From a virus, in IMG/VR virus record IMGVR_UViG_3300032311_001250, positions 1-64,000 of that record: a stretch of 64,000 nucleotides of DNA; one strand, written 5' to 3'. The notes below the pieces were generated by a model that was not told where the DNA came from, ran no database searches, and worked only from the letters and a program-made list of their open reading frames with translations. Below are positions 2,925-26,684 of this stretch, in pieces; position 1 is the first letter of the stretch; each line of letters begins with the position of its first letter. The translations under genes and the position numbers were made by a program.

Positions 2925-2928
2925 AATC

Positions 2929-4158
2929 ATGAGCGAACTCAACGAGAAGTTGCAGGAAGTTGCAAAGGGTCTTGAAACCCTTGGCAATGCTCCGCACCTT
3001 GTCGGCCGTGTTGCCGACGAGTCCATTGATGTCGCCGAGGCCTATGCTACTCAGCGCGAGCTTCGCAAGAAGTTCTCGAAGATGAGCCGCATGGAACTTG
3101 GCGAGGCGCTCGACATCCAGGCCACCCGCGAAGCGGGCAAGCAGGCTTCGTCCGATGTTCTTAACCGCCTTGCGGTTGCGAACCCGAACATTGCCAAGCT
3201 GCTCGATGCCAGCGGCGGCGCGGCGCTTATCCGCCAGGATCTCGAGCCAATCCTTTACGCGATCTTTGTTAAGAAGTTCCCGTTCTTTGAGCGCCTTCGC
3301 AAGGAGCCGGCAAACGGCCTTGTGCATGCGTTCAATCAGCAGACTGCTTACGGCGACGCAGTGTTCCAGACTGAGACCGGCACGGTCACGGACGACGTGA
3401 ACACCTACGCCCGCCAGACGACCAACGTGGCCGTTTTGGCAACCCGCCGTGGTATCACCCTGAAGTCGCAGTTTGCGATTACCCAGGGCGGCGCCCCGGG
3501 GCAGCAGGGCCTTTCGACCGAGCTTGAGGGTGGCGTCACTGCCATCGCCCACAAGCTTCAGAAGACCCTCTTCCAGGGTAACGCCAACACCACTTCCGGT
3601 GCAGGCGCGACCACCGAGCTCGGTGCCTATGATGCGAACGGCTTTGACGGCCTCCGCAAGCTCCTCGGAGCTGCGGCCGGTACTGCCCAGATCGCAAACA
3701 AGGGTACCGCTGCTTACCTGAGCGTCATCAACAACAACGTTGCTGACATCCTCAGCGCTGGTGGTAACCCATCGGCAATCCTTGTGAACCCAGCCGACTA
3801 CGCCGGCTTGGTCAACGAGGTCACGAACCTTGTTCGCTACAACGGCTCAAGCCGCGCGAGCGAGCAGATGGGCCTTGGTCTTGGTTCCGTTGTCACGGCT
3901 GCCGGCGAGCTTCCGCTCCTGGCTGTTCCTGGCGACGCAATCGGGACGTACACCTATAGCTCGACGGCTTACCGCGACATGTATGTCGTGGACGAGTCGG
4001 TCTGGTCGATGCCGTACCTTGGTTCGGACTCGATCACGACGCTCGAGATTCCAGTTGGTGTGAACGGCGCTCTTTCGCGCCTCTACATCATGTACTGCAT
4101 GTACGGTCTTGCCAACAAGACCCCGCAGTTCAACGGGAAGATCCGCGTTTCGATCTAA
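2929..4158 (+). CDS. Major capsid protein (HK97 fold)
   Basis: Follows the protease/scaffold; 409 aa; ALIRQDL, TLFQGN and FDGLRKL motifs typical of capsid proteins; followed by a terminator. Confidence 0.88.
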   Translation: MSELNEKLQEVAKGLETLGNAPHLVGRVADESIDVAEAYATQRELRKKFSKMSRMELGEALDIQATREAGKQASSDVLNRLAVANPNIAKLLDASGGAALIRQDLEPILYAIFVKKFPFFERLRKEPANGLVHAFNQQTAYGDAVFQTETGTVTDDVNTYARQTTNVAVLATRRGITLKSQFAITQGGAPGQQGLSTELEGGVTAIAHKLQKTLFQGNANTTSGAGATTELGAYDANGFDGLRKLLGAAAGTAQIANKGTAAYLSVINNNVADILSAGGNPSAILVNPADYAGLVNEVTNLVRYNGSSRASEQMGLGLGSVVTAAGELPLLAVPGDAIGTYTYSSTAYRDMYVVDESVWSMPYLGSDSITTLEIPVGVNGALSRLYIMYCMYGLANKTPQFNGKIRVSI

Positions 4159-10655: not shown

Positions 10656-10942
10656 GCTGGTCTGAGATCGACTGGGGGTCGATCATGGCGTCTTACGCAG
10701 ATGCCTTTGGTTATACCCCAAGCGATTTCATGCAACTCACGCTACCCCAGCTAAACGCATTCGCAAGATACATCGAACAGCGTGATAAGGAGATGAAGGA
10801 GGGTTCGTCCTCATCTTCATCTTCGAAGAGCTCTAAGAACCGAGCGAAGTTTGCCGAAGGTAGCAAGGGAATGAGCAACATCGGCTCACTTGAGCAGATG
10901 ATTTCCGTGTTCGGCAGGCCCGGTGGGCAGTCCGGCGGATGA
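10637..10942 (+). CDS. Tail assembly chaperone gpT part (frameshift product gpGT)
   Basis: FGYTPSDFMQLTLPQL motif typical of gpT; reached by the -1 frameshift. Confidence 0.8.
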   Translation, partial: GKSGGVSWSEIDWGSIMASYADAFGYTPSDFMQLTLPQLNAFARYIEQRDKEMKEGSSSSSSSKSSKNRAKFAEGSKGMSNIGSLEQMISVFGRPGGQSGG

Positions 10943-10955
10943 GTGGGGGTTTTGA

Positions 10956-13900
10956 GTGGCTGAGGGTCAGGGCGGGAATGTCGCAAGCGTAGGTCTATCT
11001 CTAGACTCGTCTGCGTTTAATTCTGGCGTAGCCCGCGCCCTTGCAGACATTTCCCGACTCCTCACCGGACTGCGCGAGCTTCAGGCTGCCAGCCAGAAAA
11101 CCAACCTCGGCCAACTCGGCGCTACTGGACGATCCGGAGCGGCTTCTGGCGCTTTTACCCCCGCAACATTTGCACGCGATATTCGTCGCCTTGCTATTCC
11201 GGCAATCCGTCAGCTTGATCGCGCCGCCTCCACGTCTCCGCTACTTACCGGAAGAATGGCTCGCGGTGCCGGGTTTGACCCTGCTGCCATGGCAGCGGCA
11301 ATCAATCGCCAGACAATTCCCGCAATCCAACGCCTCAACCGAACTATGGGGAGCTTCCGCGACTCCGACTTCATGAAGGAGTTTGAGGCTGGTCGAGCCG
11401 CCAGGGAGCGCGCTCACCGAGCAATGCTGGAGCGTGAGTCCAGGATTACGCAGGAAATTGCCAAGGGAACCACTAAGCGATTGGAGCGCGAGCAGGCGCG
11501 CATGATCCAGGCGCAGCAGGCTGAAAACCGCCGAGCGGCAGATCCAAACACCCAAGGCTCTCGACAGCTTCGTGCCGCAATTGAAATGCGCCGTCAACTT
11601 GCGGAGCAAAAGCGTTACGTTGAGGCGCACCCAACCCCAACGCAGACCCGCTATGCCGGAGGCGGAAGGGGCGGTGGCAGCCGTGAGGGTCGATGGGGTG
11701 ACGTTGCCGACCTGAAAGGCATTCCAAAGGACTGGCGCAAAGTCCTTATGCAGCTTGAGCAGCAGGGGTGGAGGATTGAGCCACGAAGTGGGGGCCATCC
11801 AGTTGCATACCCGACAAGCAAGCAATATAAGCCCATTACGTTCCCGAGCACGCCATCAGACCATCGTGACCTTCTAAACTTTATCTCGAAGGCACGACGA
11901 TCTGGCGGGGTTATCAATGGTCGTGGGTACCGAGATGAGGCCGGTCCATTTGTTGAGCGACAGCGTGGATTCTATGAAGACCCGTCAACCAAGAAACCGA
12001 CGCTTCGCGCCAACTATCGAATGGCTGCCCTTGAGGAACTTGTAACCTCTAACCTACCGAGCTATCCGCCGGTCATGCAACCGCGCCCTCGCGGCGTGTC
12101 TGGTGTCTCTGCGGCCGATCCTAACTCCCGGCAGCAAATTGAAAGAATGATCAAGGGCTTTGAGCGCGGCAAAGTGTTTGCCCCAAGCGCTAACCTTGAG
12201 GAAGGCCTCATTGCCACCGTGGCAAATGCTGCTGGACAGCAGTTCGTCGCATCCGGTAATGCCCGAACCATGGCGCTTCAAGCCATTGCAAAGCAAGGAA
12301 CTCCGCTTCGCAACGCCATTAGCGGCTTTAGCATGGAGTACCTAAAATCAAATCCAACAGAGTTTGGCCAGGGCGAGGTTGCCGCACTTAAAAAGGCTGG
12401 AGCATCTATTGCAAGGTCCGGCAAAACGCCAGTGCTCATCCGCGAGATTGCCGGTGGCGTAGAAGGCCTTGCTCCGCAGCGCCTTGGCCAGCTCGGTCTG
12501 CAACTCAATGCTCGAACCGGTCTTTCTGAGAGCGAGATCGCCATTGCTGCGTCGCGCATGCTTTCTAAGGTCCCGGCAGAGGTGCTTGCCGGAGATCCTC
12601 GTAAGATTGTCGCCGCAGGAAAGGGGCCAGCATATGAGGCCCTAAAGAGCGCCCTTTCTTCGGAAGTGCTCGGTGAGCATGTTATGGGGACAAGGTACAA
12701 GGGTGCCAGCGGTGGTGTTGCATTTAAGGGCATGATGGAGCAGATGCTGTATGCACGCGCGTACGGCAATAACCCGGCAACCGCCCAAATGCTCACCGCA
12801 GCGTTCTCCGGAGAGCCCTCAGAGATGAGTTCCTCTGTCAGGGCTGCACTTGGTCGTAGCCTTGGACCACAACTACGTCTCCGCGAACGAATCAATGCTG
12901 GAGAAGTTCCGGCAGGCATGGATCCAATCTTCAACTCGCTTCCTGGAGCATTGCAACTTATGCAAAGGGCACTCGGGACCGGCGGGCAGGGGCCAGGGTG
13001 GATTACCAACCCAGAAACACTTCGTGGAAACCCTGCCGGAGCGTTGCGTGCATTGCTTTCGCAGAAAACTATGTTTGGAGATCCGACTACAGCAATTGAG
13101 CGTCGTCTTGCCGCAAACATGCTTGCTGTCGGGCCTCAGGGTTTGTCTCCGTTCCTTTCCTCACTCGGCATGTACGGCTCCCGGGCAGAAGGTGCCCAGA
13201 TGGGCATGTTCGGCGCGTCTGAGGGTGGCCTGCTGCAAGCAACTAGCAACCCACGTCAGGCTATTGCACTGGCCCAGAAGGCAGCCGCACAATACCAAGA
13301 AGCACTAAAGACCGATCCGGCCCTGAAGGGCACCGGAAAGGCGGCCGTTACCGCCAGAGAGGCAGTGCTAACCTCCATTGTTGAGGGCGTCTATTCTGGC
13401 ATGCCTGCTCAAGCTGCGGCTGTGGCGCAGAAGGTGGCAACAAGCAGCCCACAGGCTGCTGCTGTCGGCCAAGAAATTGTGCAGGGGACCGCTGCGGCTG
13501 TCACTCAGGCTGCGGTAAATCCAAAGAGGAAGAAATTCACGTTTAAGCTTTCCGAGGAGGAGCAGGCTGCGTTCCTCAGTAAGCTTCGTGGACCAGTGGT
13601 TGCCCCCGCCTCACAGGGCGGCGGATATCAAATGTTCCCACCAGAAGAGCCAAGAACTGGGCTGCGCAGGCCAAATGCCCAGCGCATGACAGAGCTTGGT
13701 GGATACGGTATTTCTCCACGGGAAATCGGTGTTGCTGAGGGCAGCGTAAAGGCCCGTGCTGGTGGGTATCTGCCGTATAGCGAGTCTAGCCCACAGCGGC
13801 AAATGCAATACAACAATCGGCTTACACGCGGCTATGCAACGTTGATGGGTGAAATCGAGGGTCACCTCGCTCAACCAGGACCAAAGTCTACCGCCGCGCT

Positions 13901-16900
13901 TGCAGCAAAAATTCCAGAGGTTGAACGTCTATACAAGGTTGCTATGGAGCGTGGCGGCCTTGGCATGGACCCAATGAACGCCCATGCAGAAGTGGTTGCC
14001 AAGGCTCGAGCAATCCTTGGACCCGTAGCCATCCCGCAGTCAGAGCCCCAGCGGCCACCAATTGTTACCGCAACGCCGGTACCGACGACACCCGAAGGAA
14101 TTCCTTACATCAAGGTTCCAACTAGCGGAGAGTTGACTGAGGCCCAGATAAAAGCTGTCCAGGAGGGCCGAGCAAAGCTCTTAATGCCGCCTCCTCCACC
14201 TCGGCAAAAGACCGGAAGGAGCATTGGCGGTCCTATCCCGCCAACCAATGAGGGTTTGGCATCGCTCCTTGGCATTGGTCCGGCGCTGCAACTTGGTGCC
14301 GGATATCGTCCGTATCCTGGCGATCCAATGCTTGCCGCCCTTACGCGCGCTCAAGTAGAGCGACGCGCCCTCGCTCTGTCTCGTGGGCAGGTTGAGGGTC
14401 CCCTTATCGGGGCAAATCGTGGCGGCCTTGATCCGGTAACCGGTGCGTTTACTGTCAATCCGAAGATTCCAGAAGTCACCAGGATGCAAGGCGGAATGCT
14501 TCGTGCGCTTCTTACTAGCGAATCGCTGAGCGCAGCTGAAAAGGCACGACAGATCTCCCTTCTCAGCGGAAGCATTCCCGGCATGCGAGGGGTTCCAACG
14601 AGTATCCCAGAGGGCCAGTGGCAGAAGCTTGGGAGCGGGTCATATCGCGGACCAAAAGACCTCAAGCCAGTGTACGAGTCGCTCAAGCCGCTTATTGAGC
14701 AGTATGGTGCCGCTCGAACTATGGGCTACGTTGAACTTGCCAGGGGCTCTTCGCAAGGTTACGGGTATTGGGATCCAAAGAATAAAGGCCTGAATCTTTC
14801 TGGGCTTGAGGGACGAAGCTCTGGTGCAATCATGCGAACGTTGGTGCACGAGCTTGCGCATGGATCATTTGGCGAGGCAATGAGGACCGGCTACAAGCAG
14901 CCTGGTCAGGTTCAGATTTATGGCCCCAAGGGTGAAAGCATGGGCATGGCGCCGCATGGCGCTGCCTCTGCGCTTCTTGCCGGAGAGCCAACGAGAGTCG
15001 GCCACCTTGATCCAAAGTTCTACGAGATGCAGGCAAGGATTCTTAAGTCCGAGGGCGGGCTTTTCTCATCGTTGCTGTTCCATAACTTTGCGCAGGGTGG
15101 GTCGCTCCCAGGTGGGCTTGGGTTGCAGGGCACAGGCCCAGAATATGGTATTGGAAAGCTCGCCGCTCAACTGACTCCACAGCTAGAAAAACTTGCCTCG
15201 CCTCAGCAGCTTCTAGCCGCTCAGGCATTTACAAAGACTATGAACACCTTGGTAGGTGGTATTGAAGGATTTGCTAAGGGCAGGGGCAACCTCGAGCAGA
15301 CCAGCAACGGCATCGCAAAGGCGTTCAGAACGCTTGGAGAATCGTCCTCTGAATTCAAGCCAGAGTTTTTGCTCGGCGGTGCCGCCCGGCTATCCAACTT
15401 CATCCGGCAAAATGGCCAAGAAGGCCTGGCAAAGATGGCCCCAGAGCAGTTGCGTGCAGGAATCGTCAACTCCATCCTGTCTACCACGACCGGCGCACTC
15501 GGTCCGGGTCGGTTGCTGGGGCCAATGTCGCAGGTCAGTGGTGTTCATGGGCAGATCTCAGAGTTCCTCAAAAATGCCAGCGAAATGGAGAAGGGCTACC
15601 TGGCCATGGCGATCAACCCGCAGGCCTTTGTTAAGGAGCCCGGGGCAAAGCCATTCTACCAGCGTGGAGATGTAGATCATCTACAGAAGGCTCAGGAAAT
15701 CCTCTCAAACGTTGCGCAGGAGGCAGAACGCGCTGCAAGCGTCATCCCAGCAGCAACAAATGTTGCCGTTACGCGACGTGCCGGAATGCAGCTTCCTGTT
15801 ATCAATCGAGGACGCATGCTTCCGGCAGAACACTCGGTTGTTGTTTCCGGGCAGCGCTATGGGGCCGGTGGTGGTCAGTTTGTAGAAACAACTAATAGCG
15901 CCGGAGAGACTGTTCGGCAATTTGTTCCTGCTCAGCGCCTCCCAGAGGTAACCCCTGTACAGGGACCTATGTCTGGCTCCGGAGCCCTTGTCGTCTACGA
16001 CCCCCGCGTTGCTGCTCAATACGAGCAGAATAATCCACGCTTTGCCGGAAGGCCATATGGCGGTCGAGCAGAGACTCAACGCTTTACTCCGAATGCTGCT
16101 CTTCTCAACGAGGCATACATGCGCACGCTCAGCTACGGAGGACAGGGCTTCTTCGGTCGTGTAGGGTACGAGCGCCTGACAATGCCGGCACAAGAAATTG
16201 CAAGCCGGTACGCCGGATTCCGTGGCGCTGTTGGTCAGGCCGCATACAACAGCCCCCTCAGCCCAATTGGCGGCATGATGAGCCAGTTCCGACAGGCAAC
16301 AGGAACATATGCCGAGGCCGAAATGGGAAAGCAGCAGCTTCGCGCGGCGGCCCGCCAGCAATATCAAGGTCAAGTTGCCCAGGCTGATGCATTTGCCAAT
16401 GCCCAGACTCGATTGAATCGTGTTCTCGGTACTGGCACCGTAAACTTCCGAGAGCTTGGCAAGGTAATGAGCGAGGTCGGAAACGGCTTTACTTCTGGAG
16501 CTCTTTCTTCGCTGAGGTTCGCTGCAAACCTTGCCATTGGACAGCAGGCAGTGTTTGCGTTCGTCGGAATGATCAACCACCTCCGTGGCGGTATTATCGA
16601 GTTCAACGCAAAACTTGAGGCCGCTGCCGTAGGGTTTAACACACTCTTCCGAAACGCTGGATATACCGTCGAAGATGCGAGCGAGAAGACCAAGGCATTC
16701 ATTGGCGTTCTTCGTGACTTTGCCAACGTAACAAACTTCCGATTCGGCGACCTTGAGACCGCAGCCCTCCGCATGAAGGCATTCGGTTTCGAGGTGGATA
16801 ACGTTACCGCTGCCGCAAAGAACCAGATGCCAATCCTTGAGGAAATTCCTAATCCGTGGGCAAAACTGACCGGAGAGGCTAAGAGCTTCCGTGGCGCCCT

Positions 16901-19900
16901 CGTCAACATCGGCGATGCAGTTGCGGCACTCGGCGCAGAAGACGATAAACTCCGCCGTGTCACGTACGCCCTTGGCCAGATGAACTCAGCTGGTCGTGTC
17001 TATCAAAACGACATGATGCAGCTGGCAAACGCTGGTATTGCCGGATATGACATTCTTGCTAAGGCAGTTAAGAAGCAACTCGAGAATGACCCAGAGCTCA
17101 TGCGCGCAAATAAGGCCATCTATAACAAGTTGCTAAACCCAAGAACTGCCGTAGAGGAGATCCGCAAACTTGCCCGCGTTGGACGACTCGTTGGACCAGA
17201 GGCCGTGCAGGCCATTCTCCAGGGCCTTGGGCAGCAGTACGGCGGCGGCATGAAGGCGTTCTCCCGTACCTTCCAAGGAGCCATGACAACTCTTGCGGAT
17301 ACGTCGCAATCCCTTATTGCTACCGCGTTCAAGCCACTCTTCGATGTCACCCGAGATCTTGTCGTTCAGCTTGCCGACGCCTTCCAAACATCTGAGTGGA
17401 CGGGCAAGGCGGATAATGCCGCCAAGGTCATTCAGAAGGTTGCGGAAGCGCTCAGGTCAATGATCCCTGGAACGGCAGACACGATTATGAAGGTCCTTGG
17501 TAGCTTCTTTGAAACCTTTGCAAAACTTGGAAGCTCCCTTGGCAGTACCACAAATGGCTTGGGTAGCTTTGTTAATAACTTTGCTGCAGGAGTAAAGACC
17601 ATTGGAGATCTTCTTCAAAACAGCGTGATCCGCAACCTTTTGGTGGCCGGCGTTACCGCAAAACTCGTTATGGGAACAATTGCTTCCAACCCTCTCCTGG
17701 CAACCATTGGACTCATTGTGTCTTCCATTGGGGCAATCAGTAAGGCTATTGAGACAAACGCCTTTGGCTTTGGCGACCTTGCGGCAAAGGTGCAACCTGA
17801 ATTTGACAAGATCCTTGCAAATATCAGCGGAAACTTCATCCCGGGAGTAACGAGCGGCCTCTCCGACGGCCTGGGCGCGTTCTTTGCCATCATGGGGGCC
17901 TTCATCCGCGCAGTCACTCCGCTATTGGTCGCAATCCTGGACATCATTAGTAACGTTGGGTCTGCTATCAAGCCATTTGCCAGCGTTCTTGGCGTTGCGC
18001 TTGCGGCATTTGTTGGCAAGAAAGTCCTGATCGACGGCATGGCTGCCGCCATGGGTAAGTTTGCCGCCGCAACTGGCGCTGCCGTCGGCAGGGTCACATC
18101 GCTTAAGGAAAAGATGGCGCTGTATCAGGCGTTTGGAACCACCGGAAGGTACTACGGTGGCGACAAGCTAATGGCGATGCAAACTATGCAGCTGGCCAAT
18201 GGTCAAAGTCGAGCAGTTCTTGCCCCTGCCGAGCAGGGTGGAATTGGTATCGGCGGACCGACTGCCGTTCGCGCAGCCCTTGCCCTGGCGAATCAATTTG
18301 CCCTCCTGCAGACCGGAGCCCCACTCCAGACTGCCGGAGTCGTTCCGCCGCAAACGGTCCTTGACAAAAAGACCGGCCGCCAGGTCGCCAACCCAATGTA
18401 TCAACAGTTCCTTAATACCGCCGCATTTAATCCGCAGACAACTCTGGCCCAGTATCAAGCAATTCGCGGCGCACGAAAAGAAGAAATTATGCAGGAGTTG
18501 GCAATTCGAAGGAACAAGTCGCTGACCCCAGAACAGCGCCAGGCTGCTCTAGCAAATGTGTCAACTGCCGGACGCCAGGCATATCGACAATTCCGTGCAG
18601 ATACCGGAGGAGCTGGTTCTTCAAGCATGAAGGCCCTTGAGGCGTCATTTGCCTCAATGAGCCAGGGGATGATTGCCCAGCTCGGTCAGTTTATGGCCAA
18701 GATTCGATCCACTGGCCTCAGCTTGGAAACACTAAAGACTATTGCCAAGGCGGTTGGATCCCGACTTGCTGGCATGGCAACTGCTGCCATGGGCATGGGC
18801 ATGCTCTTTAGCGCTATCGGCGGAGCTTTGAATGTTAAGGAGCTTCAAGCAGTTGGAGATACGCTCACAACGATTGGGTTTGCAACAACAGGTTTGACCA
18901 TGATGTTTAACGCCTTGACTGTAGCTGTTGGCGCTGCCGCGCTGCCGCTTATGGCGCTTATGCTTGCAATTGGCGGCCTTATCGCGTTCATCAGTGCCAG
19001 CACAACTACCGAGCAGGATAAGAAAGGCGCAAAGCAAGTAAGCGAGATTATGGATCTCCGTGATCAGATGGTTGCAATGTACGGAGAGGAAGAGGCAAAG
19101 CGCAGGTTCCCGGACTACTTCCCAGAAAATCTTACGTTGCCGGAGAAAAAGTTGCGCATGGCCCTTCCCGGTGAAACCCCAGACTCTTATGATTGGATTA
19201 ACAATATCGCATTGAAACTTGATTATGACCCAAAGGATCTTGCCGCTGTCCGAAGTCAGTTCGGATTTACCGATGAGGATTTTGCAAAGACAAAAGCCTA
19301 TTTTGAGATGATGAATACCGATACCGGTCGAATTCTCTCCTTGTTCCAGGAAGGAAAAACGGCCGAGCAGATTGCTGAGATTACCGGTCTACCAATTGAT
19401 CGAATCAAGTTGCAGCTAAAGGAATTCTACGAGACAACTGGTTCTGACAATAAGGACTTTATTGCCAAGGTGCTTAGCGATAGCCTTGATGCAACCGGCG
19501 CTGCCCTGAAAGAAGCGCAGGAGGCTTACGAAAAGGCAATGGAGCCGTTCCAGAAGAACCTTAGCCGCCTGACTTCTCGAACCCAGGAAGTCATGCAGGC
19601 GCTCTTTGAGAGCGAGAAGAAGGCCCTGGAAGATGAGAAGAAGGCTGCGCTAGAAAATACGTTGGTAATGTACAACGGCGAGCAGGTCCGACTTGGCGTG
19701 CTGCAGCAGCAATATGATGCCATGAAGCTTCAGCGCGAAGAAATGGACCGCATGGCCGAACTTGAGAAACAGCGCACAGCTGCCGCAGAGGCCGCGCTCA
19801 ATATCTTTGACGCCAGTGTTGATCCGCTTGAGCGAGCTCGAGCGGCTCGAGAGTCCGCTCGAGATCTTTTCAATCAAGTTGGAACGTCAAGGCTTGACGA

Positions 19901-21560
19901 GATGCAGCGGGCGATTACCGCCGGCCAGGGGAATGTCGCCTATACAGAAACCGAGGCATTCTACAACGAGAAGATGGATGCCCTACAAAAGGATCAGGCC
20001 GAGCGAATGCGCACGGTCCAGGAGCAAATCGACGACTTGATGCAGAAGATCAAGGAAGGCAAGATTGGGACCGCCGCCGCACAGCAGCAGTTCAAGGATA
20101 TCTTTGCGCAAGCCGGTCTTGACCTCGACGTTGCCCAGACACAAGGGTACTCGTTTATGTCAGCCTTTGGCGATGGCTTCATGGATGCGATGAACACAAA
20201 TATTAAGGGCGTATTCTCCAAGCTGCCTGGACTTATCATGAAGGCGTTGGAAATGGTCAAGCAGGACAAGCTGTATCAGCAGGCCCTTGACGCCTATAAC
20301 GCCATCGTCACGATGGGTGACAAGATTACTGGCAAGGAATACAAGTCTAAGTATCTGCAGCCGCGCCTTGCTGGTTTGAACACTCTCTACAAAGATGCCG
20401 TTAAGTACCTTACCAGTGGCGAGGGCGTAAAGGCTGCCGGTGGCCTTGATAAGGCGCAAGCCATGATGGCCACACTGCTCAAGAAGAAGATCGAACTGGA
20501 AAACATGATCTCGGCAACTAGCGATACGGCTGTTATTGACAAGTCACTTGCATTGGCTGGAGACTCCTCATATCGCAGTGACATTATGGGTATCCAGTTG
20601 CCCGGCATGGGAAATCGCTCGCTTGTCGACTACCTCAGGCTTTACATGGGCTACGCTTCTCGTGACCGCGATAATTACATGAACAATCCGTATCTTGCCG
20701 GTGGCGCGGCTGGCGGTACAATCACGACTGCCGGTCAGTTCATGGTGGGCGAGCGCGGGCCGGAGATGATTGAAGTTGGGCCAAACGGCATTCGCGTCGT
20801 CCCAAACCACAAGCTTCCGTCCTGGCTGCGCTCGTCTGCCGGGGCTCTTGGCGCTGTCAATATGGGTCTGGGTGGCTATGCCTTTGGCACTGGTTCGGGC
20901 GACTCCGGAATGCGTGGACTGAAGTTTGACCCTAAACACATTAACCCGGAACACATTAGAAAATATGGCAACGTGTCAATGGCCGGAACCTGGCAGTCTG
21001 CCCTTGGCATGCTATTGATGCGTGCCGGGGCACCTATTGCCGCCCTTGCGTCAAGGGCCGGTAACGGACTTACTCGTGGAATGGAGTGGATGATTGGACC
21101 AGGACCACTTGGCAAGATGGCCGATAAGATTGTATCACTTGGCAGTAGCATCAATAATATTGATCCAGAAAATCTTGGACCAAAAATGAAGTTAATTAGC
21201 ACGCTCATGAAACCGCAAATGGACATGATGGCATTTGCGCAAGACGTTGGGTATACCAAGTATATGTCTACTGATTTCTTGAAAACTATGGCAGCTGCTG
21301 GTGGCACAATCGGCCTCACCGGGTTAGAAGCACAAGGCTTGATGGGTGCCCCTGGGTTCCTCATGAATCTTCTCAATGGTGGCCCACGATCAGTAACGCC
21401 ACCAAACGTGCATGCACACCCATCTCGATCACCAATTAGTGGTACAGTGAACATTCACAACCCGCAACTCAACTCTGCGGCCGACATTGACCGACTCGCC
21501 GAGCGCGTTGCGGAGGCTCAAGTGCGAGCACTTCGAAACTCCGGCTATGTAAAGAGGTAA
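10956..21560 (+). CDS. Giant tape measure protein with HicA-like, ddrB-ParB-like and zincin domains
   Basis: Follows G/GT. N-terminal LSLDSSAFNSG. Tape-measure domain about 16590-17350 (FANVTNFRFGDL...IGDAVAALG...ALGQM...QLANAGI). Hydrophobic helices. C-terminal AGG...VGERGPE...VVPN. Extra domains at about 11710-11925, 12010-12560 and 14660-15050. Confidence 0.92.
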   Translation: MAEGQGGNVASVGLSLDSSAFNSGVARALADISRLLTGLRELQAASQKTNLGQLGATGRSGAASGAFTPATFARDIRRLAIPAIRQLDRAASTSPLLTGRMARGAGFDPAAMAAAINRQTIPAIQRLNRTMGSFRDSDFMKEFEAGRAARERAHRAMLERESRITQEIAKGTTKRLEREQARMIQAQQAENRRAADPNTQGSRQLRAAIEMRRQLAEQKRYVEAHPTPTQTRYAGGGRGGGSREGRWGDVADLKGIPKDWRKVLMQLEQQGWRIEPRSGGHPVAYPTSKQYKPITFPSTPSDHRDLLNFISKARRSGGVINGRGYRDEAGPFVERQRGFYEDPSTKKPTLRANYRMAALEELVTSNLPSYPPVMQPRPRGVSGVSAADPNSRQQIERMIKGFERGKVFAPSANLEEGLIATVANAAGQQFVASGNARTMALQAIAKQGTPLRNAISGFSMEYLKSNPTEFGQGEVAALKKAGASIARSGKTPVLIREIAGGVEGLAPQRLGQLGLQLNARTGLSESEIAIAASRMLSKVPAEVLAGDPRKIVAAGKGPAYEALKSALSSEVLGEHVMGTRYKGASGGVAFKGMMEQMLYARAYGNNPATAQMLTAAFSGEPSEMSSSVRAALGRSLGPQLRLRERINAGEVPAGMDPIFNSLPGALQLMQRALGTGGQGPGWITNPETLRGNPAGALRALLSQKTMFGDPTTAIERRLAANMLAVGPQGLSPFLSSLGMYGSRAEGAQMGMFGASEGGLLQATSNPRQAIALAQKAAAQYQEALKTDPALKGTGKAAVTAREAVLTSIVEGVYSGMPAQAAAVAQKVATSSPQAAAVGQEIVQGTAAAVTQAAVNPKRKKFTFKLSEEEQAAFLSKLRGPVVAPASQGGGYQMFPPEEPRTGLRRPNAQRMTELGGYGISPREIGVAEGSVKARAGGYLPYSESSPQRQMQYNNRLTRGYATLMGEIEGHLAQPGPKSTAALAAKIPEVERLYKVAMERGGLGMDPMNAHAEVVAKARAILGPVAIPQSEPQRPPIVTATPVPTTPEGIPYIKVPTSGELTEAQIKAVQEGRAKLLMPPPPPRQKTGRSIGGPIPPTNEGLASLLGIGPALQLGAGYRPYPGDPMLAALTRAQVERRALALSRGQVEGPLIGANRGGLDPVTGAFTVNPKIPEVTRMQGGMLRALLTSESLSAAEKARQISLLSGSIPGMRGVPTSIPEGQWQKLGSGSYRGPKDLKPVYESLKPLIEQYGAARTMGYVELARGSSQGYGYWDPKNKGLNLSGLEGRSSGAIMRTLVHELAHGSFGEAMRTGYKQPGQVQIYGPKGESMGMAPHGAASALLAGEPTRVGHLDPKFYEMQARILKSEGGLFSSLLFHNFAQGGSLPGGLGLQGTGPEYGIGKLAAQLTPQLEKLASPQQLLAAQAFTKTMNTLVGGIEGFAKGRGNLEQTSNGIAKAFRTLGESSSEFKPEFLLGGAARLSNFIRQNGQEGLAKMAPEQLRAGIVNSILSTTTGALGPGRLLGPMSQVSGVHGQISEFLKNASEMEKGYLAMAINPQAFVKEPGAKPFYQRGDVDHLQKAQEILSNVAQEAERAASVIPAATNVAVTRRAGMQLPVINRGRMLPAEHSVVVSGQRYGAGGGQFVETTNSAGETVRQFVPAQRLPEVTPVQGPMSGSGALVVYDPRVAAQYEQNNPRFAGRPYGGRAETQRFTPNAALLNEAYMRTLSYGGQGFFGRVGYERLTMPAQEIASRYAGFRGAVGQAAYNSPLSPIGGMMSQFRQATGTYAEAEMGKQQLRAAARQQYQGQVAQADAFANAQTRLNRVLGTGTVNFRELGKVMSEVGNGFTSGALSSLRFAANLAIGQQAVFAFVGMINHLRGGIIEFNAKLEAAAVGFNTLFRNAGYTVEDASEKTKAFIGVLRDFANVTNFRFGDLETAALRMKAFGFEVDNVTAAAKNQMPILEEIPNPWAKLTGEAKSFRGALVNIGDAVAALGAEDDKLRRVTYALGQMNSAGRVYQNDMMQLANAGIAGYDILAKAVKKQLENDPELMRANKAIYNKLLNPRTAVEEIRKLARVGRLVGPEAVQAILQGLGQQYGGGMKAFSRTFQGAMTTLADTSQSLIATAFKPLFDVTRDLVVQLADAFQTSEWTGKADNAAKVIQKVAEALRSMIPGTADTIMKVLGSFFETFAKLGSSLGSTTNGLGSFVNNFAAGVKTIGDLLQNSVIRNLLVAGVTAKLVMGTIASNPLLATIGLIVSSIGAISKAIETNAFGFGDLAAKVQPEFDKILANISGNFIPGVTSGLSDGLGAFFAIMGAFIRAVTPLLVAILDIISNVGSAIKPFASVLGVALAAFVGKKVLIDGMAAAMGKFAAATGAAVGRVTSLKEKMALYQAFGTTGRYYGGDKLMAMQTMQLANGQSRAVLAPAEQGGIGIGGPTAVRAALALANQFALLQTGAPLQTAGVVPPQTVLDKKTGRQVANPMYQQFLNTAAFNPQTTLAQYQAIRGARKEEIMQELAIRRNKSLTPEQRQAALANVSTAGRQAYRQFRADTGGAGSSSMKALEASFASMSQGMIAQLGQFMAKIRSTGLSLETLKTIAKAVGSRLAGMATAAMGMGMLFSAIGGALNVKELQAVGDTLTTIGFATTGLTMMFNALTVAVGAAALPLMALMLAIGGLIAFISASTTTEQDKKGAKQVSEIMDLRDQMVAMYGEEEAKRRFPDYFPENLTLPEKKLRMALPGETPDSYDWINNIALKLDYDPKDLAAVRSQFGFTDEDFAKTKAYFEMMNTDTGRILSLFQEGKTAEQIAEITGLPIDRIKLQLKEFYETTGSDNKDFIAKVLSDSLDATGAALKEAQEAYEKAMEPFQKNLSRLTSRTQEVMQALFESEKKALEDEKKAALENTLVMYNGEQVRLGVLQQQYDAMKLQREEMDRMAELEKQRTAAAEAALNIFDASVDPLERARAARESARDLFNQVGTSRLDEMQRAITAGQGNVAYTETEAFYNEKMDALQKDQAERMRTVQEQIDDLMQKIKEGKIGTAAAQQQFKDIFAQAGLDLDVAQTQGYSFMSAFGDGFMDAMNTNIKGVFSKLPGLIMKALEMVKQDKLYQQALDAYNAIVTMGDKITGKEYKSKYLQPRLAGLNTLYKDAVKYLTSGEGVKAAGGLDKAQAMMATLLKKKIELENMISATSDTAVIDKSLALAGDSSYRSDIMGIQLPGMGNRSLVDYLRLYMGYASRDRDNYMNNPYLAGGAAGGTITTAGQFMVGERGPEMIEVGPNGIRVVPNHKLPSWLRSSAGALGAVNMGLGGYAFGTGSGDSGMRGLKFDPKHINPEHIRKYGNVSMAGTWQSALGMLLMRAGAPIAALASRAGNGLTRGMEWMIGPGPLGKMADKIVSLGSSINNIDPENLGPKMKLISTLMKPQMDMMAFAQDVGYTKYMSTDFLKTMAAAGGTIGLTGLEAQGLMGAPGFLMNLLNGGPRSVTPPNVHAHPSRSPISGTVNIHNPQLNSAADIDRLAERVAEAQVRALRNSGYVKR

Positions 21561-21563
21561 CTA

Positions 21564-24500
21564 ATGGCCAGCTATACTGGAACAATCACTGTCAAGATTC
21601 AACCAAAGCTGCTCGACTATACCTCGCTGTCCGATTTCGTTGATATCACTAACCGCGTGATCTTTTCCGAGGGAGGAGATTCGTCGTTTACGTTCACGCA
21701 GAGCTCTGAGGGGTCACAGGCAGGTGCTTCGTTCTCCCTGTTCACCATGTTCCCCATCTCAACAACGAAGTGGTCATCGTATACCGGAGCAACAGACTTG
21801 ATCAAGGCGCAAGCTGCGCTTAATGACCCTACCTTTGACTTCGAAGTGCCGGCTAGGTCTGAGGTGCAAATCTACGAGAACGGCAGCCTGATCTTCGGCG
21901 GCATCGTGACCGAAGTGTCTCGGGAGCGAACGGGTGGATCCATCACCACGCGCATTACCTGCCAAGACTATACTGCGCTCCTTGACGAGGTGGTAATTGA
22001 CCGGTACAAGGCCCCCTACGACGTAAAGGACTACCAGATCATCAAGGGCGGCTACGCCACCGACCCCGAAAAGAACGGCCTGTCGGTCATCAAGCTCGTT
22101 GATGGTGGCTCCGGCAGCACCCGAGAAATCACCGTTTCCCTGGAAGATGCGCACGACATGATTGTTGGGCAGCAGTTCACCATTGACCGATCTAGCTCAT
22201 ACAACGGGACATGGACTGTTTCTTCAATTCTTTCTGAGGTGTCAATTAAGGCAACAAAGTCTGGAACCGCTCCATATACCGCAGGCGATGAGACATCCGC
22301 CCGGCTAACGCCATATACGGCATCGATTTTTTCAGACATCCGAACGACCGATGCCTACAGCGGCCTATCGTTTAGCCTTGGAATCAATGCAACTAGTAGC
22401 TATGTCGAAGAGAATCTTAACGATACGCGCTTTAGCCCCATTTCGTATTTGCCGGACTCATCGTACCCAGATAAACTCGGGGCAAAGTTGTATCTGCCAT
22501 TTTCCGATTACAAAGTTAGCAACTATCGATTCTCTGCCGACCCCAAGGCGGCTGATCTTACCAATGAGCTGCGTCTCTTTGGTTTGCAAAGCACTATTAA
22601 TGAGCGAAACCTTGTCACCTCTATCAGTTCCTATAACACGACGAGCAATTATGTTGACGTCACAACTCTTGGTTCACACAACATTATCAGCGGCGAATAC
22701 GTCAGCGTTGTCAACCCGCTTCTTGATTCTGGAAAGACTTCTTTTTCATCGAGCTTCCAGGCAGATCGACAAAGTTCATCGGTGGTTCGCATGGCATCAC
22801 CTACTGATCCGGCGATTGACGTAAAGAAATACGCAATCACTGCGGCAAGTGGGGACGGAACATATATTACCTATACCTGCACAAATACATTTCTTCCTGG
22901 AGATGTGGTGGGAATCAGCGGGATTACGGAAACTAGCACCGCCGGATACGGCTCGCTTAACATTGTTTCCACCGTAGTGGAAGAAGCCACATCAACAACG
23001 TTCAAGATTAAAAACCCAGGAAATCAGACTGCCACCAGCTTTACAGGGGCCTATGCCTACACGACCTATATCCAACTGGCCAAGGATCGAGTGCAAAACC
23101 TTTATTCCGACTCTAAGGTGTATCAAATCCTTGCGGCAAACCGAGAAGGAAACGTTTCGCAAATTTGGTACAATTCAACCACACCGCAGTATGCAGTAAA
23201 TGAGTGCGTATTCATTGAGGGGCTTCCTGATTTTGACGCTCGCGTTATTGTTTCTGAGACGTCCGGTACCACCCCCGATGCTTTCACCGGAAGTCCATGG
23301 AGGATTTACAAATACGGTAGGTATAACAACGTCGGAGTAGTCGGCGTCGCTAAGAACAAAAGCCCCTATGTTCCTGGATACAAGAATGGAAATTACCTTT
23401 CCTCCGGGCACCCGTTTATTGTTGGGGCATCAATCGTTATCTCCGGACTAACCGGATCAGCTGCAACTGTCAACGGAACATTTACTATTACGAGGGTAAA
23501 AGGAAATTTGGTGTTCTTTAACAGTTCTGGAGGCAACACGGGGTCTTCCACAACCTATGTTAAAGATGTTTCCAGCAAGTCAGCCAGGCTTGCCAGCTCT
23601 ATCGTTTACAGCACCGGTGGTGTTTCTTGGATTAAATTTACCGATAGCCGGGCTGACGCAGAAAAAACACCAGAATCTATGCCTAAAACAGCGGCAATCC
23701 GTCAGTTTAATTTTGCCTGGCCAGCGATCTCTGGTGGTCGCTCGGCCGGAACCCCTAGCGCTTCCTTTATCACGGCCCCAGAAGATACGCTTTCGTACAT
23801 TGGCGGCAGGCAAGCTGTAAAGTTCACCTCATCGTCATACAGCGGCATTTCTTCAAGGATTAAGTCAGAAATTTCTTTTGTGGAAATTGCATCTAATGTG
23901 GTCACTATTACCACAAAAGCTGCTCATCGCTTCAGGGTTGGTCAGTTTGTTGTAGTGCAGGCGGCGACAAAAACTACCGTTCAGGGCGGCTATATCATTA
24001 CCGATGTCCCAACCCCAACAACGTTTACATATAGCCTTACTACTTCAAACTATTCAAAAACGGCGGATAGTGGTCCAACGTTTGTCATGGATACCGGTTT
24101 TGCCGCTCTATCAAAATCGTTCAGCGCAATCATTATGGTGCAGCCTAGCTCATTCCCGTCTTCTGGTAACTACAAGACCATTTGGCATCATGGCTCAATT
24201 GCGACGAGTCAGCGACGAGAGCTTATGATTGACTCTACCGGCCAGATTGTGTTTAGTACCGTTCATGGAACTTACTACAATACCGGCCTTACGCTTACCG
24301 CCGACGTTCCGGCATTGATCTACGTGTCCCTTGATTCCTCAACCGGAACCACTAACTTGGTCATTTCCAAGAATGACGAAACCGTGTACACGGCAAGTGC
24401 AACAAACTATGGAGGAACAACAAACGTAGATGGTGAGCCAAGGGCAAATCTCACTGTTGGCTACGGCTGGACAGATTCCAGCGCTGCCACCAGGTTCTAT

Positions 24501-26684
24501 GACGGCTTGATCGGCGACATGATTGTCATTGACCGTGTTCTTACCTCAACAGAACGTTCTCAGCTAATTTCTTGGATGGCGCATACCTTTACCCTTGCTG
24601 GATCGCTTTTGTCTAGCACCTCTACGTATAAACTTCTTGCCGACAATCCCGGGAAGGCCGAGGTTTCTAAGGTCAAAGAGCCATTTAACGGCATGACGCT
24701 ACGCCAGGCAATGGACTATATCTCGAAGAAAACTGGATGCCAGTATTGGGTTGACGCCAATAAGTACCTGCACTATATCAAGCGAGAGGTCCAAAACTTG
24801 GTAGAGAACCCAACTTTTGAAGATCAATTCGGCAATGCAAGCCTGACCGACTGGGATTTTGACGCAGGGTTCACTGTCTCCTCGAGGACAGAGGGGCCAT
24901 ACGGCTATGGATATGCCGCAACGGCCTCTGGAACCGCAGAGCTAATTGCTCGCTCAAAGTTTTTTACTGTTACCTCAGGAGAGAAGTATTTCGCTTCGGC
25001 AATGATGAAGACAAGCAATAAGTCGAAGTCCCGACTGGAAGTTCGCTTCTATAACTCTAGCGATGTGCAGGTAGGGGGAGAAAAGGAGATTGGGTCGGCA
25101 GTATCCACTAACAATTCTTGGGAAAAGATGTGGGGCATGGTTGCCGTTCCGGGAACTCCTGGCATCGTAAAAGCTGCGTTGATTTACCATCATACTTCGC
25201 ACAGCAGCACCTATACGGACTACTACGCTAATCCGCTTGTCGTGAAGCTTACCGGAGACTTTGGGTTTGCTGACTACGGCACCGCACCAGGTTCAACGGT
25301 AGAGATGCTGTTTGATACATCCCTAAACGCAATTATGCCACTCAAGACGTTTGAGGCGCCATCCAACATCTCTCAACACGGCAGCATGGCAAACCGTGTC
25401 TACATTTATGCTAAGCCGCTTGCAACGAATGCTACGGGTGATCTGATCTCGGCAAATGTCGTTACCGGACAAGTGCTGAAGTACACGTTTGACTATGTCC
25501 AGGGCGTCTGGAATACACATGGAAAAATCATTGAATCTTCAACCGTCAACAAGGATATTGAGACCGCTGAGGATGCGGCGTTGGCCGCAAGCGCAATCTT
25601 TAGCGATTCCGGCAAGACTATTGAATCTTACGACTTTGACCATCCAAACTCTGCCTCCGATGGACGACTGACTGTTGGAACCGTTATTCCATACTTCTGG
25701 AGCGAAGTCGGCGTTATTGAGCCGCTTGTAGTCAAGTCACAAACAACTAAATTCATTGGCGGAGAGGCCTACTACTCCGTGCAACTTGCCGGAGAGCCGG
25801 CACTGCAACGAAACGCAATTGTGCTTGTGCAGCGAGAAAACCTTACGGTCAATCTTGGCCCTGGCCAGCTTGCTTTGACTCGACCAACTAAGGTCAAAAA
25901 TATTGTTGTCAACTCTATTGATGTTGACGGAAAATCTCAGACAGTTGACTTGAACGCCAAGATTCAATGGAGCTTTGATACGACTGATCCAAGGAACAAG
26001 TTAGTAAAAAGGTTTGAAATTGAGCGACGTTCACAGGATTTGAACAAAAACATTCTTGGTAAAAAGGCACTTGCAAGTGGCACTGCTCTTTCTCGCGGGT
26101 CGGCTGTTGTTGGCGCAGAGTCTAGCTGCTATGTAAAGCTTGTTGGCTCTAACTCTATTAGCGCAGAGGACATCATCACTATTGCCAACTGGGTAAACCC
26201 AGCAAAAAAGAATTTGGCCGCCAATCCTACGCTTAACGGGAGCTGGGTTGTTGATCATGTGTCTTATAGCAAGACAAGTAAGGCAACAACCGTATACTTC
26301 AATATGTATGCATCGGAAACCTCGCCAATCGCAGCCTACAGCGCAGCAAAGGGTTCTGTCCCAACCAAATTTACTGTCAGCTGGTATGAGACTGTCAAGG
26401 CTGGTGTAACCGGGAACAAGTGGGCAGCGCTAGATACCGTTCTAATTGGGTCAACAAGCTACACGGATAGCAAGAGCGACTATAAGCACCGCTACCAGTA
26501 TAGAATCCGTGCTGTTGCAGAAACTGAAGATGGTGGTAAACTGTATGGCGATTGGTCATACGTTCCGGCAACGGCCATCAGCAGCCTGGCAGATACAGCA
26601 TGGCTGTATATCAATCGCAGCCTTGACCTTTCCTCTGATGGCGGAGCTGGGGCAGATGCGGTATTAACGGAGGCCACCACATGA
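21564..26684 (+). CDS. Large tail tip/hub protein with repeated beta modules, LamG-like and CBM-like domains
   Basis: IFGGIVTEV...ITCQDYT and GCQYWVDANKYLHY hub motifs; FYDGLIGDMIVIDRVLT (LamG-like); NLVENPTFE (CBM-like); C-terminal YQYRIRAV...YGDWS (FN3). Confidence 0.8.
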   Translation: MASYTGTITVKIQPKLLDYTSLSDFVDITNRVIFSEGGDSSFTFTQSSEGSQAGASFSLFTMFPISTTKWSSYTGATDLIKAQAALNDPTFDFEVPARSEVQIYENGSLIFGGIVTEVSRERTGGSITTRITCQDYTALLDEVVIDRYKAPYDVKDYQIIKGGYATDPEKNGLSVIKLVDGGSGSTREITVSLEDAHDMIVGQQFTIDRSSSYNGTWTVSSILSEVSIKATKSGTAPYTAGDETSARLTPYTASIFSDIRTTDAYSGLSFSLGINATSSYVEENLNDTRFSPISYLPDSSYPDKLGAKLYLPFSDYKVSNYRFSADPKAADLTNELRLFGLQSTINERNLVTSISSYNTTSNYVDVTTLGSHNIISGEYVSVVNPLLDSGKTSFSSSFQADRQSSSVVRMASPTDPAIDVKKYAITAASGDGTYITYTCTNTFLPGDVVGISGITETSTAGYGSLNIVSTVVEEATSTTFKIKNPGNQTATSFTGAYAYTTYIQLAKDRVQNLYSDSKVYQILAANREGNVSQIWYNSTTPQYAVNECVFIEGLPDFDARVIVSETSGTTPDAFTGSPWRIYKYGRYNNVGVVGVAKNKSPYVPGYKNGNYLSSGHPFIVGASIVISGLTGSAATVNGTFTITRVKGNLVFFNSSGGNTGSSTTYVKDVSSKSARLASSIVYSTGGVSWIKFTDSRADAEKTPESMPKTAAIRQFNFAWPAISGGRSAGTPSASFITAPEDTLSYIGGRQAVKFTSSSYSGISSRIKSEISFVEIASNVVTITTKAAHRFRVGQFVVVQAATKTTVQGGYIITDVPTPTTFTYSLTTSNYSKTADSGPTFVMDTGFAALSKSFSAIIMVQPSSFPSSGNYKTIWHHGSIATSQRRELMIDSTGQIVFSTVHGTYYNTGLTLTADVPALIYVSLDSSTGTTNLVISKNDETVYTASATNYGGTTNVDGEPRANLTVGYGWTDSSAATRFYDGLIGDMIVIDRVLTSTERSQLISWMAHTFTLAGSLLSSTSTYKLLADNPGKAEVSKVKEPFNGMTLRQAMDYISKKTGCQYWVDANKYLHYIKREVQNLVENPTFEDQFGNASLTDWDFDAGFTVSSRTEGPYGYGYAATASGTAELIARSKFFTVTSGEKYFASAMMKTSNKSKSRLEVRFYNSSDVQVGGEKEIGSAVSTNNSWEKMWGMVAVPGTPGIVKAALIYHHTSHSSTYTDYYANPLVVKLTGDFGFADYGTAPGSTVEMLFDTSLNAIMPLKTFEAPSNISQHGSMANRVYIYAKPLATNATGDLISANVVTGQVLKYTFDYVQGVWNTHGKIIESSTVNKDIETAEDAALAASAIFSDSGKTIESYDFDHPNSASDGRLTVGTVIPYFWSEVGVIEPLVVKSQTTKFIGGEAYYSVQLAGEPALQRNAIVLVQRENLTVNLGPGQLALTRPTKVKNIVVNSIDVDGKSQTVDLNAKIQWSFDTTDPRNKLVKRFEIERRSQDLNKNILGKKALASGTALSRGSAVVGAESSCYVKLVGSNSISAEDIITIANWVNPAKKNLAANPTLNGSWVVDHVSYSKTSKATTVYFNMYASETSPIAAYSAAKGSVPTKFTVSWYETVKAGVTGNKWAALDTVLIGSTSYTDSKSDYKHRYQYRIRAVAETEDGGKLYGDWSYVPATAISSLADTAWLYINRSLDLSSDGGAGADAVLTEATT

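Follow-up and report, generated by a model that had tools for sequence, protein, structure and literature searches.

The first 64 kb (64,000 nucleotides; here called the window) of an uncultured phage record in IMG/VR (IMGVR_UViG_3300032311_001250; 78,442 bp, estimated to be ~90% complete) carries the gene of a tape measure protein (TMP) of the tail at positions 10956 to 21560 (+), which is one open reading frame (ORF) that begins with GTG and spans 3,534 codons. A ruler and channel part (approximately amino acids [aa] 1760 to 3534) is preceded in the product by an array of domains resembling those of polyvalent proteins, and whether this array is cargo that is delivered to the host with the DNA is, in our judgment, evenly poised. 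As read from homologs and motifs, the array begins with a head (aa 1 to 190) and continues with a HicA-like domain, a DdrB-type ParB domain and its helical partner, Pro/Gly linkers, an HExxH block, and two unassigned regions. The combination of the ParB and HicA-like domains, the HExxH block, and further domains on one late-gene product appears to fit the domain architecture of polyvalent proteins, large virion- or transfer-associated products that unite unrelated domains of effector type and typically include a metallopeptidase. A preliminary description of this DNA had proposed a similar picture; its TMP with an add-on modular front half, its ParB and HicA-like domains, and its HExxH motif hold; the zincin fold that it attached to the motif stays a candidate, and the RNase, the releasing protease, and the injection that it inferred stay conjectural.

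The ORF can be identified by its profile matches as a real tail tape measure protein. Pfam TMP_3 is matched at aa 1973 to 2122 with 42.3 bits, above the cutoff of 41, and TIGR02675 (tape_meas_nterm) at aa 1985 to 2037 with 21.0 bits, slightly under the cutoff of 21.35. In addition, three TMP PHROGs match, including phrog_1686 (tail length tape measure protein) at aa 2282 to 3034 (E = 1.6e-17). TIGR02675 models the usual N-terminal part of TMPs, and in this protein it is located nearly 2,000 residues in. Homology to the family-wide TMP core starts at ~aa 1760, which makes the earlier estimate of ~aa 1880 for the start of the tape-measure domain roughly right. Hydrophobic segments of the membrane-insertion type are present at aa 2237 to 2360 and 2647 to 2686 (Kyte-Doolittle value of >1.6). 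The location of the gene is that expected for a TMP in a tail module of the siphovirus type: in the late structural operon it follows genes for a prohead protease, an SU10-type major capsid protein, and a head-tail adaptor and ORFs of 287, 95, and 85 aa, and it is followed by three large tail genes (1,706, 538, and 1,185 aa), the third with a Peptidase_S74 (endosialidase-chaperone) domain. The gene order of the tail module is also present in locus L001. The unusual length is the only feature that would suggest that a misassembly or a sequencing frameshift joined two genes into one ORF, and we consider the probability of such an artifact to be negligible. Full-length, collinear homologs are present on two independent contigs (P0003, 3,448 aa; P0004, 3,397 aa, whose IMG/VR contig of 85.7 kb shares the gene order of the window), which excludes misassembly, and dozens more giants of 3,000 to 5,600 aa share the layout.

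A search with the core (aa 1760 to 2440) retrieved 67 further proteins of 1,950 to 5,545 aa and a set of 79 viral loci, in which the core-bearing ORFs range from 720 to 5,594 aa. The segment before the core is ~60 to 540 aa long in ~25 short relatives (720 to 1,925 aa) and 1,200 to 2,940 aa long in the giants. Short relatives of 1,500 to 1,900 aa start approximately where the core does; the 1,536-aa protein of L038, for example, starts at the equivalent of ~aa 1766 of the window TMP, which indicates that the ruler part alone is a complete TMP elsewhere. By this comparison, the front ~1,700 aa of the window TMP appear to be an add-on that is absent from the plain relatives, and the gene is twice their length. 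A conserved N-terminal head, comprising about the first 150 to 190 aa, is common to giants with different modules (L004 to L012; L013 to L015; and L018, L021, L041, L074, and L075). That the same head caps different cargo argues that the cargo stays flanked by two parts, each with a function in the tail. A cap common to the giant and the short TMPs was also considered and was not supported (hhalign probability of 23%).

The modules between head and core differ among the giants. The ParB and helical domains are found in the front halves of L004 to L012 and L022, and the HicA-like domain is found in three contexts, namely, the window clade, the L007 type (aa 131 to 198), and the 5,400-aa L018 type (aa 388 to 460). 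The front half of the L018 TMP (5,495 aa; L018:1220-10000) contains a PI3/PI4-kinase-like stretch at aa 686 to 731 (34.3 bits, with a cutoff of 27.1). PF00454 is precomputed on P0086, P0088, P0089, and P0092. The front halves of L013, L046, and L059 contain no Pfam family at all. Most giants contain between one and three HExxH motifs; the ~25 short relatives contain none. Variation of the same kind is seen at close range among P0001, P0003, and P0004. At aa 1 to 300, all pairs are ~83 to 100% identical. At aa 300 to 1000, P0001 and P0003 share 83 to 97% identity and P0004 mostly ~45 to 65%, with a minimum of ~17% around aa 800 to 900. At aa 1000 to 1800, it is P0003 and P0004 that are alike (41 to 85%), with P0001 showing ~20 to 44% identity to both, and at aa 1800 to 2100 all pairs again share 77 to 94%. 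This mosaic places recombination breakpoints at ~aa 300, 1000, and 1800, within the gene and at module borders. TMP homologs with variable N-terminal cargo, for which the preliminary description suggested a search, are found among the 79 loci, with their modules swapped by recombination.

A DdrB-type ParB module of the sort carried by phage polyvalent proteins is predicted at aa 347 to 833. Pfam ddrB-ParB (PF18763; cutoff of 27.6 bits) scores 13.6 bits on the whole protein and 20.9 bits on the isolated segment. The giants P0007 and P0008, which match aa 340 to 833 of the window protein with E values of 9e-49 and 1.4e-45, score 39.4 and 40.9 bits, above the cutoff. Fold matches of the modeled ParB domain, obtained with VIA, include KorB (8qa8; Z = 6.6; root mean square deviation [rmsd] of 2.9 Å over 96 aa), PadC (6ryk; Z = 6.6), pNOB8 ParB-N (5k5d; Z = 6.3; 180 aa), and Srx (6ky4; Z = 5.7; 88 of 89 aa), all with moderate Z values. 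With Foldseek, the ParB and helical domains together match predicted viral structures in BFVD labeled "DdrB-like domain-containing" or "large polyvalent protein associated domain" over nearly their whole length, with a probability of 1.0 and E values of 2.7e-9 to 2e-4. The Foldseek search of the PDB with the AlphaFold2 (AF2) model of aa 240 to 840 gave no match at an E value of <1e-3, and ParB-N, Noc, and Srx were among its top rows. Residues G434, N435, and R437 (GNxR, corresponding to the GxxR active-site arginine) are invariant or nearly so in 12 homologs and would map to the active-site pocket. Every giant with the ParB domain also has the helical domain (aa 524 to 833). The three-helix bundle at aa 726 to 816, which resembles sigma region 2 (Z of ~6), was dismissed as a helical match of a generic kind.

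The segment at aa 251 to 323 is predicted to have the alpha-beta-beta-beta-alpha fold of the HicA superfamily, which resembles the double-stranded RNA-binding domain (dsRBD). In the window TMP itself, Pfam HicA_toxin (PF07927) scores 14.4 bits, with a cutoff of 27 (E = 0.04 to 0.06). A phmmer search of 1.8 billion representatives identified ~60 stand-alone homologs of 65 to 85 aa that match exactly this segment, and 16 of 36 aligned relatives match HicA_toxin at an E value of <0.1, with the best being 5e-5. The longer profile-linked relatives P0145 and P0146 carry PF07927, one relative is named "YcfA (HicA-like mRNA interferase family)" by JGI, and phrog_2089 matches the domain (E = 1.9e-10). 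The AF2 model of aa 240 to 840 has a mean predicted local distance difference test score (pLDDT) of 73 and a predicted template modeling score (pTM) of 0.69, and the domain in it superposes on HicA chain 5yrz_D (VIA; Z = 5.0; rmsd of 2.8 Å; 57 of 58 residues) and matches a BFVD "HicA-like toxin" (Foldseek; TMt of 0.57). A Gly-His pair at the position of the HicA catalytic His, which lies in strand 2 of the HicA fold (His281 in the window TMP), is kept in all TMP-embedded copies, in three lineages, and stands beside a motif of the family's own, [ST]xxDxR...N, which includes D302-x-R304; His281 may be catalytic. The small alpha/beta fold and the Gly-His pair are shared with the HicA toxins of type II toxin-antitoxin systems (PF07927; PDB 5yrz, 4p78, and 6g26), whereas the window domain differs from these in being embedded in a 3,534-aa virion-type protein, in having its own motif, and in its sub-cutoff Pfam score. 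The HicA-like profile also shows weak similarity to RyR-domain chains (E = 0.03 to 0.9). HicA toxins pair with a HicB antitoxin and act as mRNA interferases. No HicB partner turned up for the window domain, and no search aimed at HicB-like genes was made. Two other proteins with the HicA-like domain were also observed. P0038 (980 aa, on an 82-kb contig) carries it at aa 405 to 470 together with a C-terminal RadC-like JAB domain (111.6 bits), a domain that is listed for polyvalent proteins of conjugative elements. P0161 (260 aa) carries it with Xre-type helix-turn-helix domains (PF12844, PF01381, and PF13560), which recalls a fused toxin-antitoxin arrangement.

The segment at aa 1235 to 1435 is a candidate minimal zincin. 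The only HExxH of the window TMP, HELAH at aa 1298 to 1302 (nucleotides 14847 to 14861), is invariant in 10 homologs, in which a first block, RT-x-[IV]-HE-[LI]-[AS]-HG, is followed by [GS]H-x-DP-x-FY..QA and then by FH. The zincin fold comprises a three-stranded sheet and a second helix that bears the third ligand, a Glu. No conserved Glu was found downstream of HExxH in the 10 homologs, and H1350, D1352, and H1376 are the candidate ligands. The AF2 model of aa 1160 to 1700 is poor, with a mean pLDDT of 44.5 and values of 50 to 71 around HExxH; it places HELAH on a helix (model residues 130 to 151), and VIA and Foldseek recovered only helical bundles from it, not the zincin fold. Pfam matches of the block are marginal (WLM, E = 0.06; DUF6782, E = 0.035), and there was no usable match for the HExxH profile among solved structures in the PDB or for the HExxH region in the ESM Atlas. 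Of the domains named in the preliminary description, the HicA-like and ParB domains thus find homologs and fold matches, and the zincin remains a candidate that is supported by its invariant motif block. The Gly/Pro-rich linkers that it noted are present as well, Gly-rich at aa 235 to 242 and 1381 to 1400 and Pro-rich at aa 1021 to 1120. As a separate observation, a second HExxH cassette (HE[IVF]GH or HETGH) is located near the C terminus of the TMPs of L004, L005, L007 to L012, L018 to L020, L041, and L045; that of P0010 matches SprT-like (21.8 bits), and the window TMP has no such cassette.

The C terminus of a TMP lies at the tail tip, and the TMP is expelled on infection and forms a conduit for the DNA. 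Since the C terminus is at the tip, an N-terminal add-on would be proximal to the head and would be the final part to exit, immediately before the DNA. If the front half is cargo, then by analogy with gp96 of Thermus phage P23-45 the whole polypeptide would be packed in the tail lumen in an extended, non-native state, with its C terminus at the tip, and would be expelled tip end first upon adsorption. The hydrophobic segments would then insert in the membrane to form the DNA conduit, and the N-terminal half would exit ahead of the DNA, reach the cytoplasmic face, and refold there. The ParB module could bind or hydrolyze nucleoside triphosphates (NTPs) and act on DNA, either in anti-restriction or by nicking host DNA; the HicA-like domain could bind or cleave RNA; and the HExxH block could separate the modules by cutting or could attack envelope proteins or peptidoglycan. 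For DdrB-type domains, anti-restriction and nicking of host DNA have been proposed, as has action on DNA or NTPs (PMC5512222). The TMP of lambda gets to the cytoplasmic side of the inner membrane and is the sole phage protein that is robustly labeled by a cytoplasmic-side TurboID-ManZ fusion during injection (PMC13190303).

Several known systems resemble parts of this arrangement. Thermus phage P23-45 has a genome of ~84 kb. Its gp96 is a 5,002-aa TMP in which the N-terminal ~1,200 aa are an active virion RNA polymerase (RNAP); gp96 is detected in virions and also has metallopeptidase and transmembrane domains; metallopeptidase motifs are described as characteristic of many TMPs (PMC10770324). 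Like the window TMP, gp96 is a giant TMP from a genome of similar size, with an N-terminal module of a cytoplasmic enzyme type followed, later in the chain, by transmembrane segments and a metallopeptidase motif. The cargo there is an RNAP, however, whereas that of the window TMP comprises a DdrB-type ParB, a HicA-like domain, and other regions and is known from sequence alone. The RNAP motif DxDGD was not found in the window TMP, and tblastn searches with the window core, ParB module, and HExxH block found no Thermus phage. Polyvalent proteins, such as phage P1 DdrB (PMC5512222), likewise carry a DdrB-like ParB, an HExxH peptidase-like block, and large uncharacterized domains on one polypeptide, are encoded among late virion genes, and show extensive domain shuffling. 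They differ in that their known carriers are head associated (MuF and the Dar system) or conjugative, whereas the carrier here is a TMP, which implies storage in the tail lumen.

Two further groups of proteins are similar in more limited respects. T5 pb2 is a TMP with an embedded envelope-acting motif. The TMP of mycobacteriophage TM4 has one as well, according to Piuri and Hatfull (2006) as cited in PMC13277306. Both carry extra functional motifs and leave the tail on ejection, but these motifs are small and act on peptidoglycan, whereas in the window TMP ~1,700 aa with folds of a nucleic acid type precede the ruler. Tme and Sle1 are TMP-related effectors of contractile injection systems (PMC11126660 and PMC13277306). 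They share the principle of a lumen-stored TMP-like protein that is ejected as an effector and has a modular, exchangeable globular domain, but they belong to phage-tail-like particles of Actinobacteria rather than to infectious phages, and their modules are C-terminal and different.

The front half may have other roles. One is that it mainly lengthens the tail, which would measure ~530 nm if all 3,534 residues count, and supplies envelope tools, with HExxH serving as an envelope or peptidoglycan peptidase, a type of activity long familiar from TMPs, and the ParB- and HicA-like folds being structural relics with no cytoplasmic role. Much of aa 524 to 833 and 1414 to 1516 is helical in the AF2 models, the conserved hydrophobic core is part of the same polypeptide, and the long tail of P23-45 is compatible with such a role. 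However, the modules are predicted to be compact and globular (pTM as given above) rather than long coiled coils, residues at active-site positions (H281 and GNxR) are conserved across lineages, and modules are swapped between relatives, not merely lengthened. A longer tail is also compatible with cargo delivery, and P23-45 shows both. We consider a role as ruler and envelope tool unlikely, about half as probable as cargo delivery.

The other possible role concerns a polyprotein made for coexpression, from which the HExxH peptidase or a host protease removes the front half before tail assembly, so that only ~aa 1700 to 3534 enters the tail and the DdrB-like part goes to the head or acts late in the infected cell. 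The behavior of P1 DdrB, which is cut by proteolysis and ends up packaged inside the head, and the usual association of polyvalent proteins with head proteins such as MuF (PMC5512222) agree with this, as do the co-occurrence of HExxH with long front halves and the short relatives, which show that ~1,800 aa are enough for a TMP. We nevertheless find it improbable. The conserved N-terminal head caps the distal end of widely differing cargo sets, a pattern that would be difficult to account for were the head thrown away. An antibody against the N-terminal 1,050-residue fragment of the P23-45 protein detects it in virions (PMC10770324). A conserved internal start or cleavage motif near aa 1700 was not found; the ATG at aa 1722, with a weak Shine-Dalgarno sequence, is not kept in P0003, and a sequence search of the TMP found no internal repeats, recurring or conserved linker peptide, or cleavage peptide. 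The front half is also free of Cys, as virion proteins are. There is no Cys in all 3,534 aa of the window TMP, and the TMP family is nearly Cys free up to 5,594 aa, enzyme-like front halves included (most members have none and a few have one to four), which is unlike the nonstructural genes of the phage; the averages are 0.49% in its other genes and 0.2% in its structural genes.

Several points weigh against delivery of the front half as cargo. Folded domains cannot fit side by side in the tail lumen in three or more copies, so unfolded storage must be assumed. The HicA-like and ParB domains both score under the Pfam cutoff in the window protein itself, and the zincin is supported at the level of its motif. 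The paucity of Cys is weak evidence, since the structural-gene share of 0.2% gives a P value of ~0.03 for 1,700 residues. No prophage copy was found in 185,579 species genomes, and the phage is uncultivated and has no close cultured relative. We infer that virions contain the front half, that it is translocated, and that its domains are enzymatically active. Among cultured phages, there was no DNA or protein match for the TMP gene, the ParB module, or the HExxH block, and the core matched only Arthrobacter and Bacillus phage TMPs with ~24% identity.

Delivery of the front half with the DNA would not be categorically new, because polyvalent proteins (PMC5512222) and an enzyme fused to a TMP (PMC10770324) have already been published. 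The view of the preliminary description that this is the best candidate for a new system in the window overstates its novelty, given the P23-45 gp96 fusion (PMC10770324). What this case adds is the HicA-like module, its new element, and the wide and mosaic nature of the TMP family. A full-text literature search found no paper linking TMPs with ddrB-ParB, and among the papers listed as containing both TMPs and HicA, the titles and abstracts held nothing on point; TMPs and HicA are both absent from the survey of polyvalent proteins by Iyer et al. (2017; PMC5512222). If its cargo is delivered, the window TMP would extend the single published case of an enzyme fused to a tail ruler, that of P23-45. 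Tentatively, and with less than even confidence, we suggest a broader generalization, in which a widespread, uncultivated lineage of siphophages with ~60- to 90-kb genomes uses the tail lumen as a general effector delivery compartment, with P23-45 as one instance. A recombination-prone slot between the fixed N-terminal head and the ruler core would hold up to ~2,900 aa of interchangeable modules, including DdrB-type ParB and HicA-like domains, HExxH peptidase blocks, and a PI3/PI4-kinase-like stretch, besides numerous uncharacterized domains. Kept in the tail in unfolded form, these modules would enter the cell immediately before the genome and refold for host takeover or anti-defense at time zero.

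If the front half is injected, TMPs would be a second route, besides head-internal proteins, by which ready-made enzymes arrive at DNA entry, and up to ~2,900 residues per TMP would be open to cargo in this phage lineage. The HicA-like module would then exemplify a fold of the toxin type that has been adopted as a domain carried by virions. Such delivery would bear on how phages preempt restriction and abortive infection systems and on how a tube with a width of ~4 nm can hold unfolded proteins that regain their fold once ejected. The TMP family may be viewed as a naturally occurring blueprint for using phage tails to deliver proteins. For annotation, the label "tape measure protein" conceals thousands of residues of uncharacterized domains.

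Table 1. Segments of the window TMP and the genes preceding it
Feature	Residues	Position (nt)	Strand	Basis or remark
Conserved N-terminal head of giant TMPs	aa 1-190	10956..11525	+	jackhmmer, E = 1e-38 to 1e-83
Gly-rich linker GGGRGGGS	aa 235-242	11658..11681	+	Composition
HicA-superfamily (dsRBD-like) domain (predicted); conserved His281, D302/R304	aa 251-323	11706..11924	+	Homologs and fold match
DdrB-like ParB/Srx domain (predicted); invariant G434-N435-x-R437	aa 347-523	11994..12524	+	Homologs and fold matches
All-helical domain after ParB (predicted)	aa 524-833	12525..13454	+	Helical in AF2 model; most 10-residue blocks with pLDDT of 73-93
Region including the Pro-rich linker (aa 1021-1120)	aa 840-1160	13473..14435	+	Partly conserved in L004-L011 and L022; no family match
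HExxH block (candidate zincin); H1298, E1299, H1302 and invariant H1350, D1352, H1376	aa 1235-1435	14658..15260	+	Motif conservation
Region forming, with the tail of the HExxH block, a predicted four-helix bundle (~aa 1414-1516)	aa 1436-1759	15261..16232	+	
Tape-measure core, including TMP_3 and hydrophobic segments (aa 2237-2360)	aa 1760-2440	16233..18275	+	67 homologs, 79 loci
C-terminal TMP region; hydrophobic aa 2647-2686, GERGPE motif at aa 3265-3270	aa 2441-3534	18276..21560	+	Homology to C-terminal parts of the family
Putative major tail protein gene	287 aa	9458..10321	+	Position only; no family match; the same 287-aa ORF precedes the TMP gene in L001
Two small genes in chaperone position	95 aa and 85 aa	10368-10655 and 10685-10942	+	Putative chaperone role, from position

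The remaining regions of the front half and the neighboring genes add some further observations (Table 1). A search of PDB sequences with aa 1 to 1900 gave no match. The predicted four-helix bundle corresponds to residues 240 to 350 of the AF2 model of aa 1160 to 1700, with pLDDT values of 55 to 83 by block, and gave generic helical-bundle matches only. Of the two small genes upstream of the TMP gene, the 95-aa product matches phrog_2115 ("tail protein"; E = 3.8e-6). Immediately 3' of the TMP gene, the 1,706-aa gene (21564 to 26684, +) has no match in Pfam, PHROGs, or NCBIfam, and its product is presumably a distal tail or hub protein. The 701-aa ORF at 819 to 2924 (+) combines a prohead serine protease domain (Peptidase_S78; 30.7 bits) with a Tudor-like domain (Hva1_TUDOR; 23.3 bits, slightly below the cutoff of 24.1) and a ferritin/Dps domain (Pfam Ferritin at aa 297 to 434; 48.8 bits; phrog_3636, E = 1e-22). 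From these matches, its product looks like a Dps-like cargo fused to a capsid protease or scaffold.

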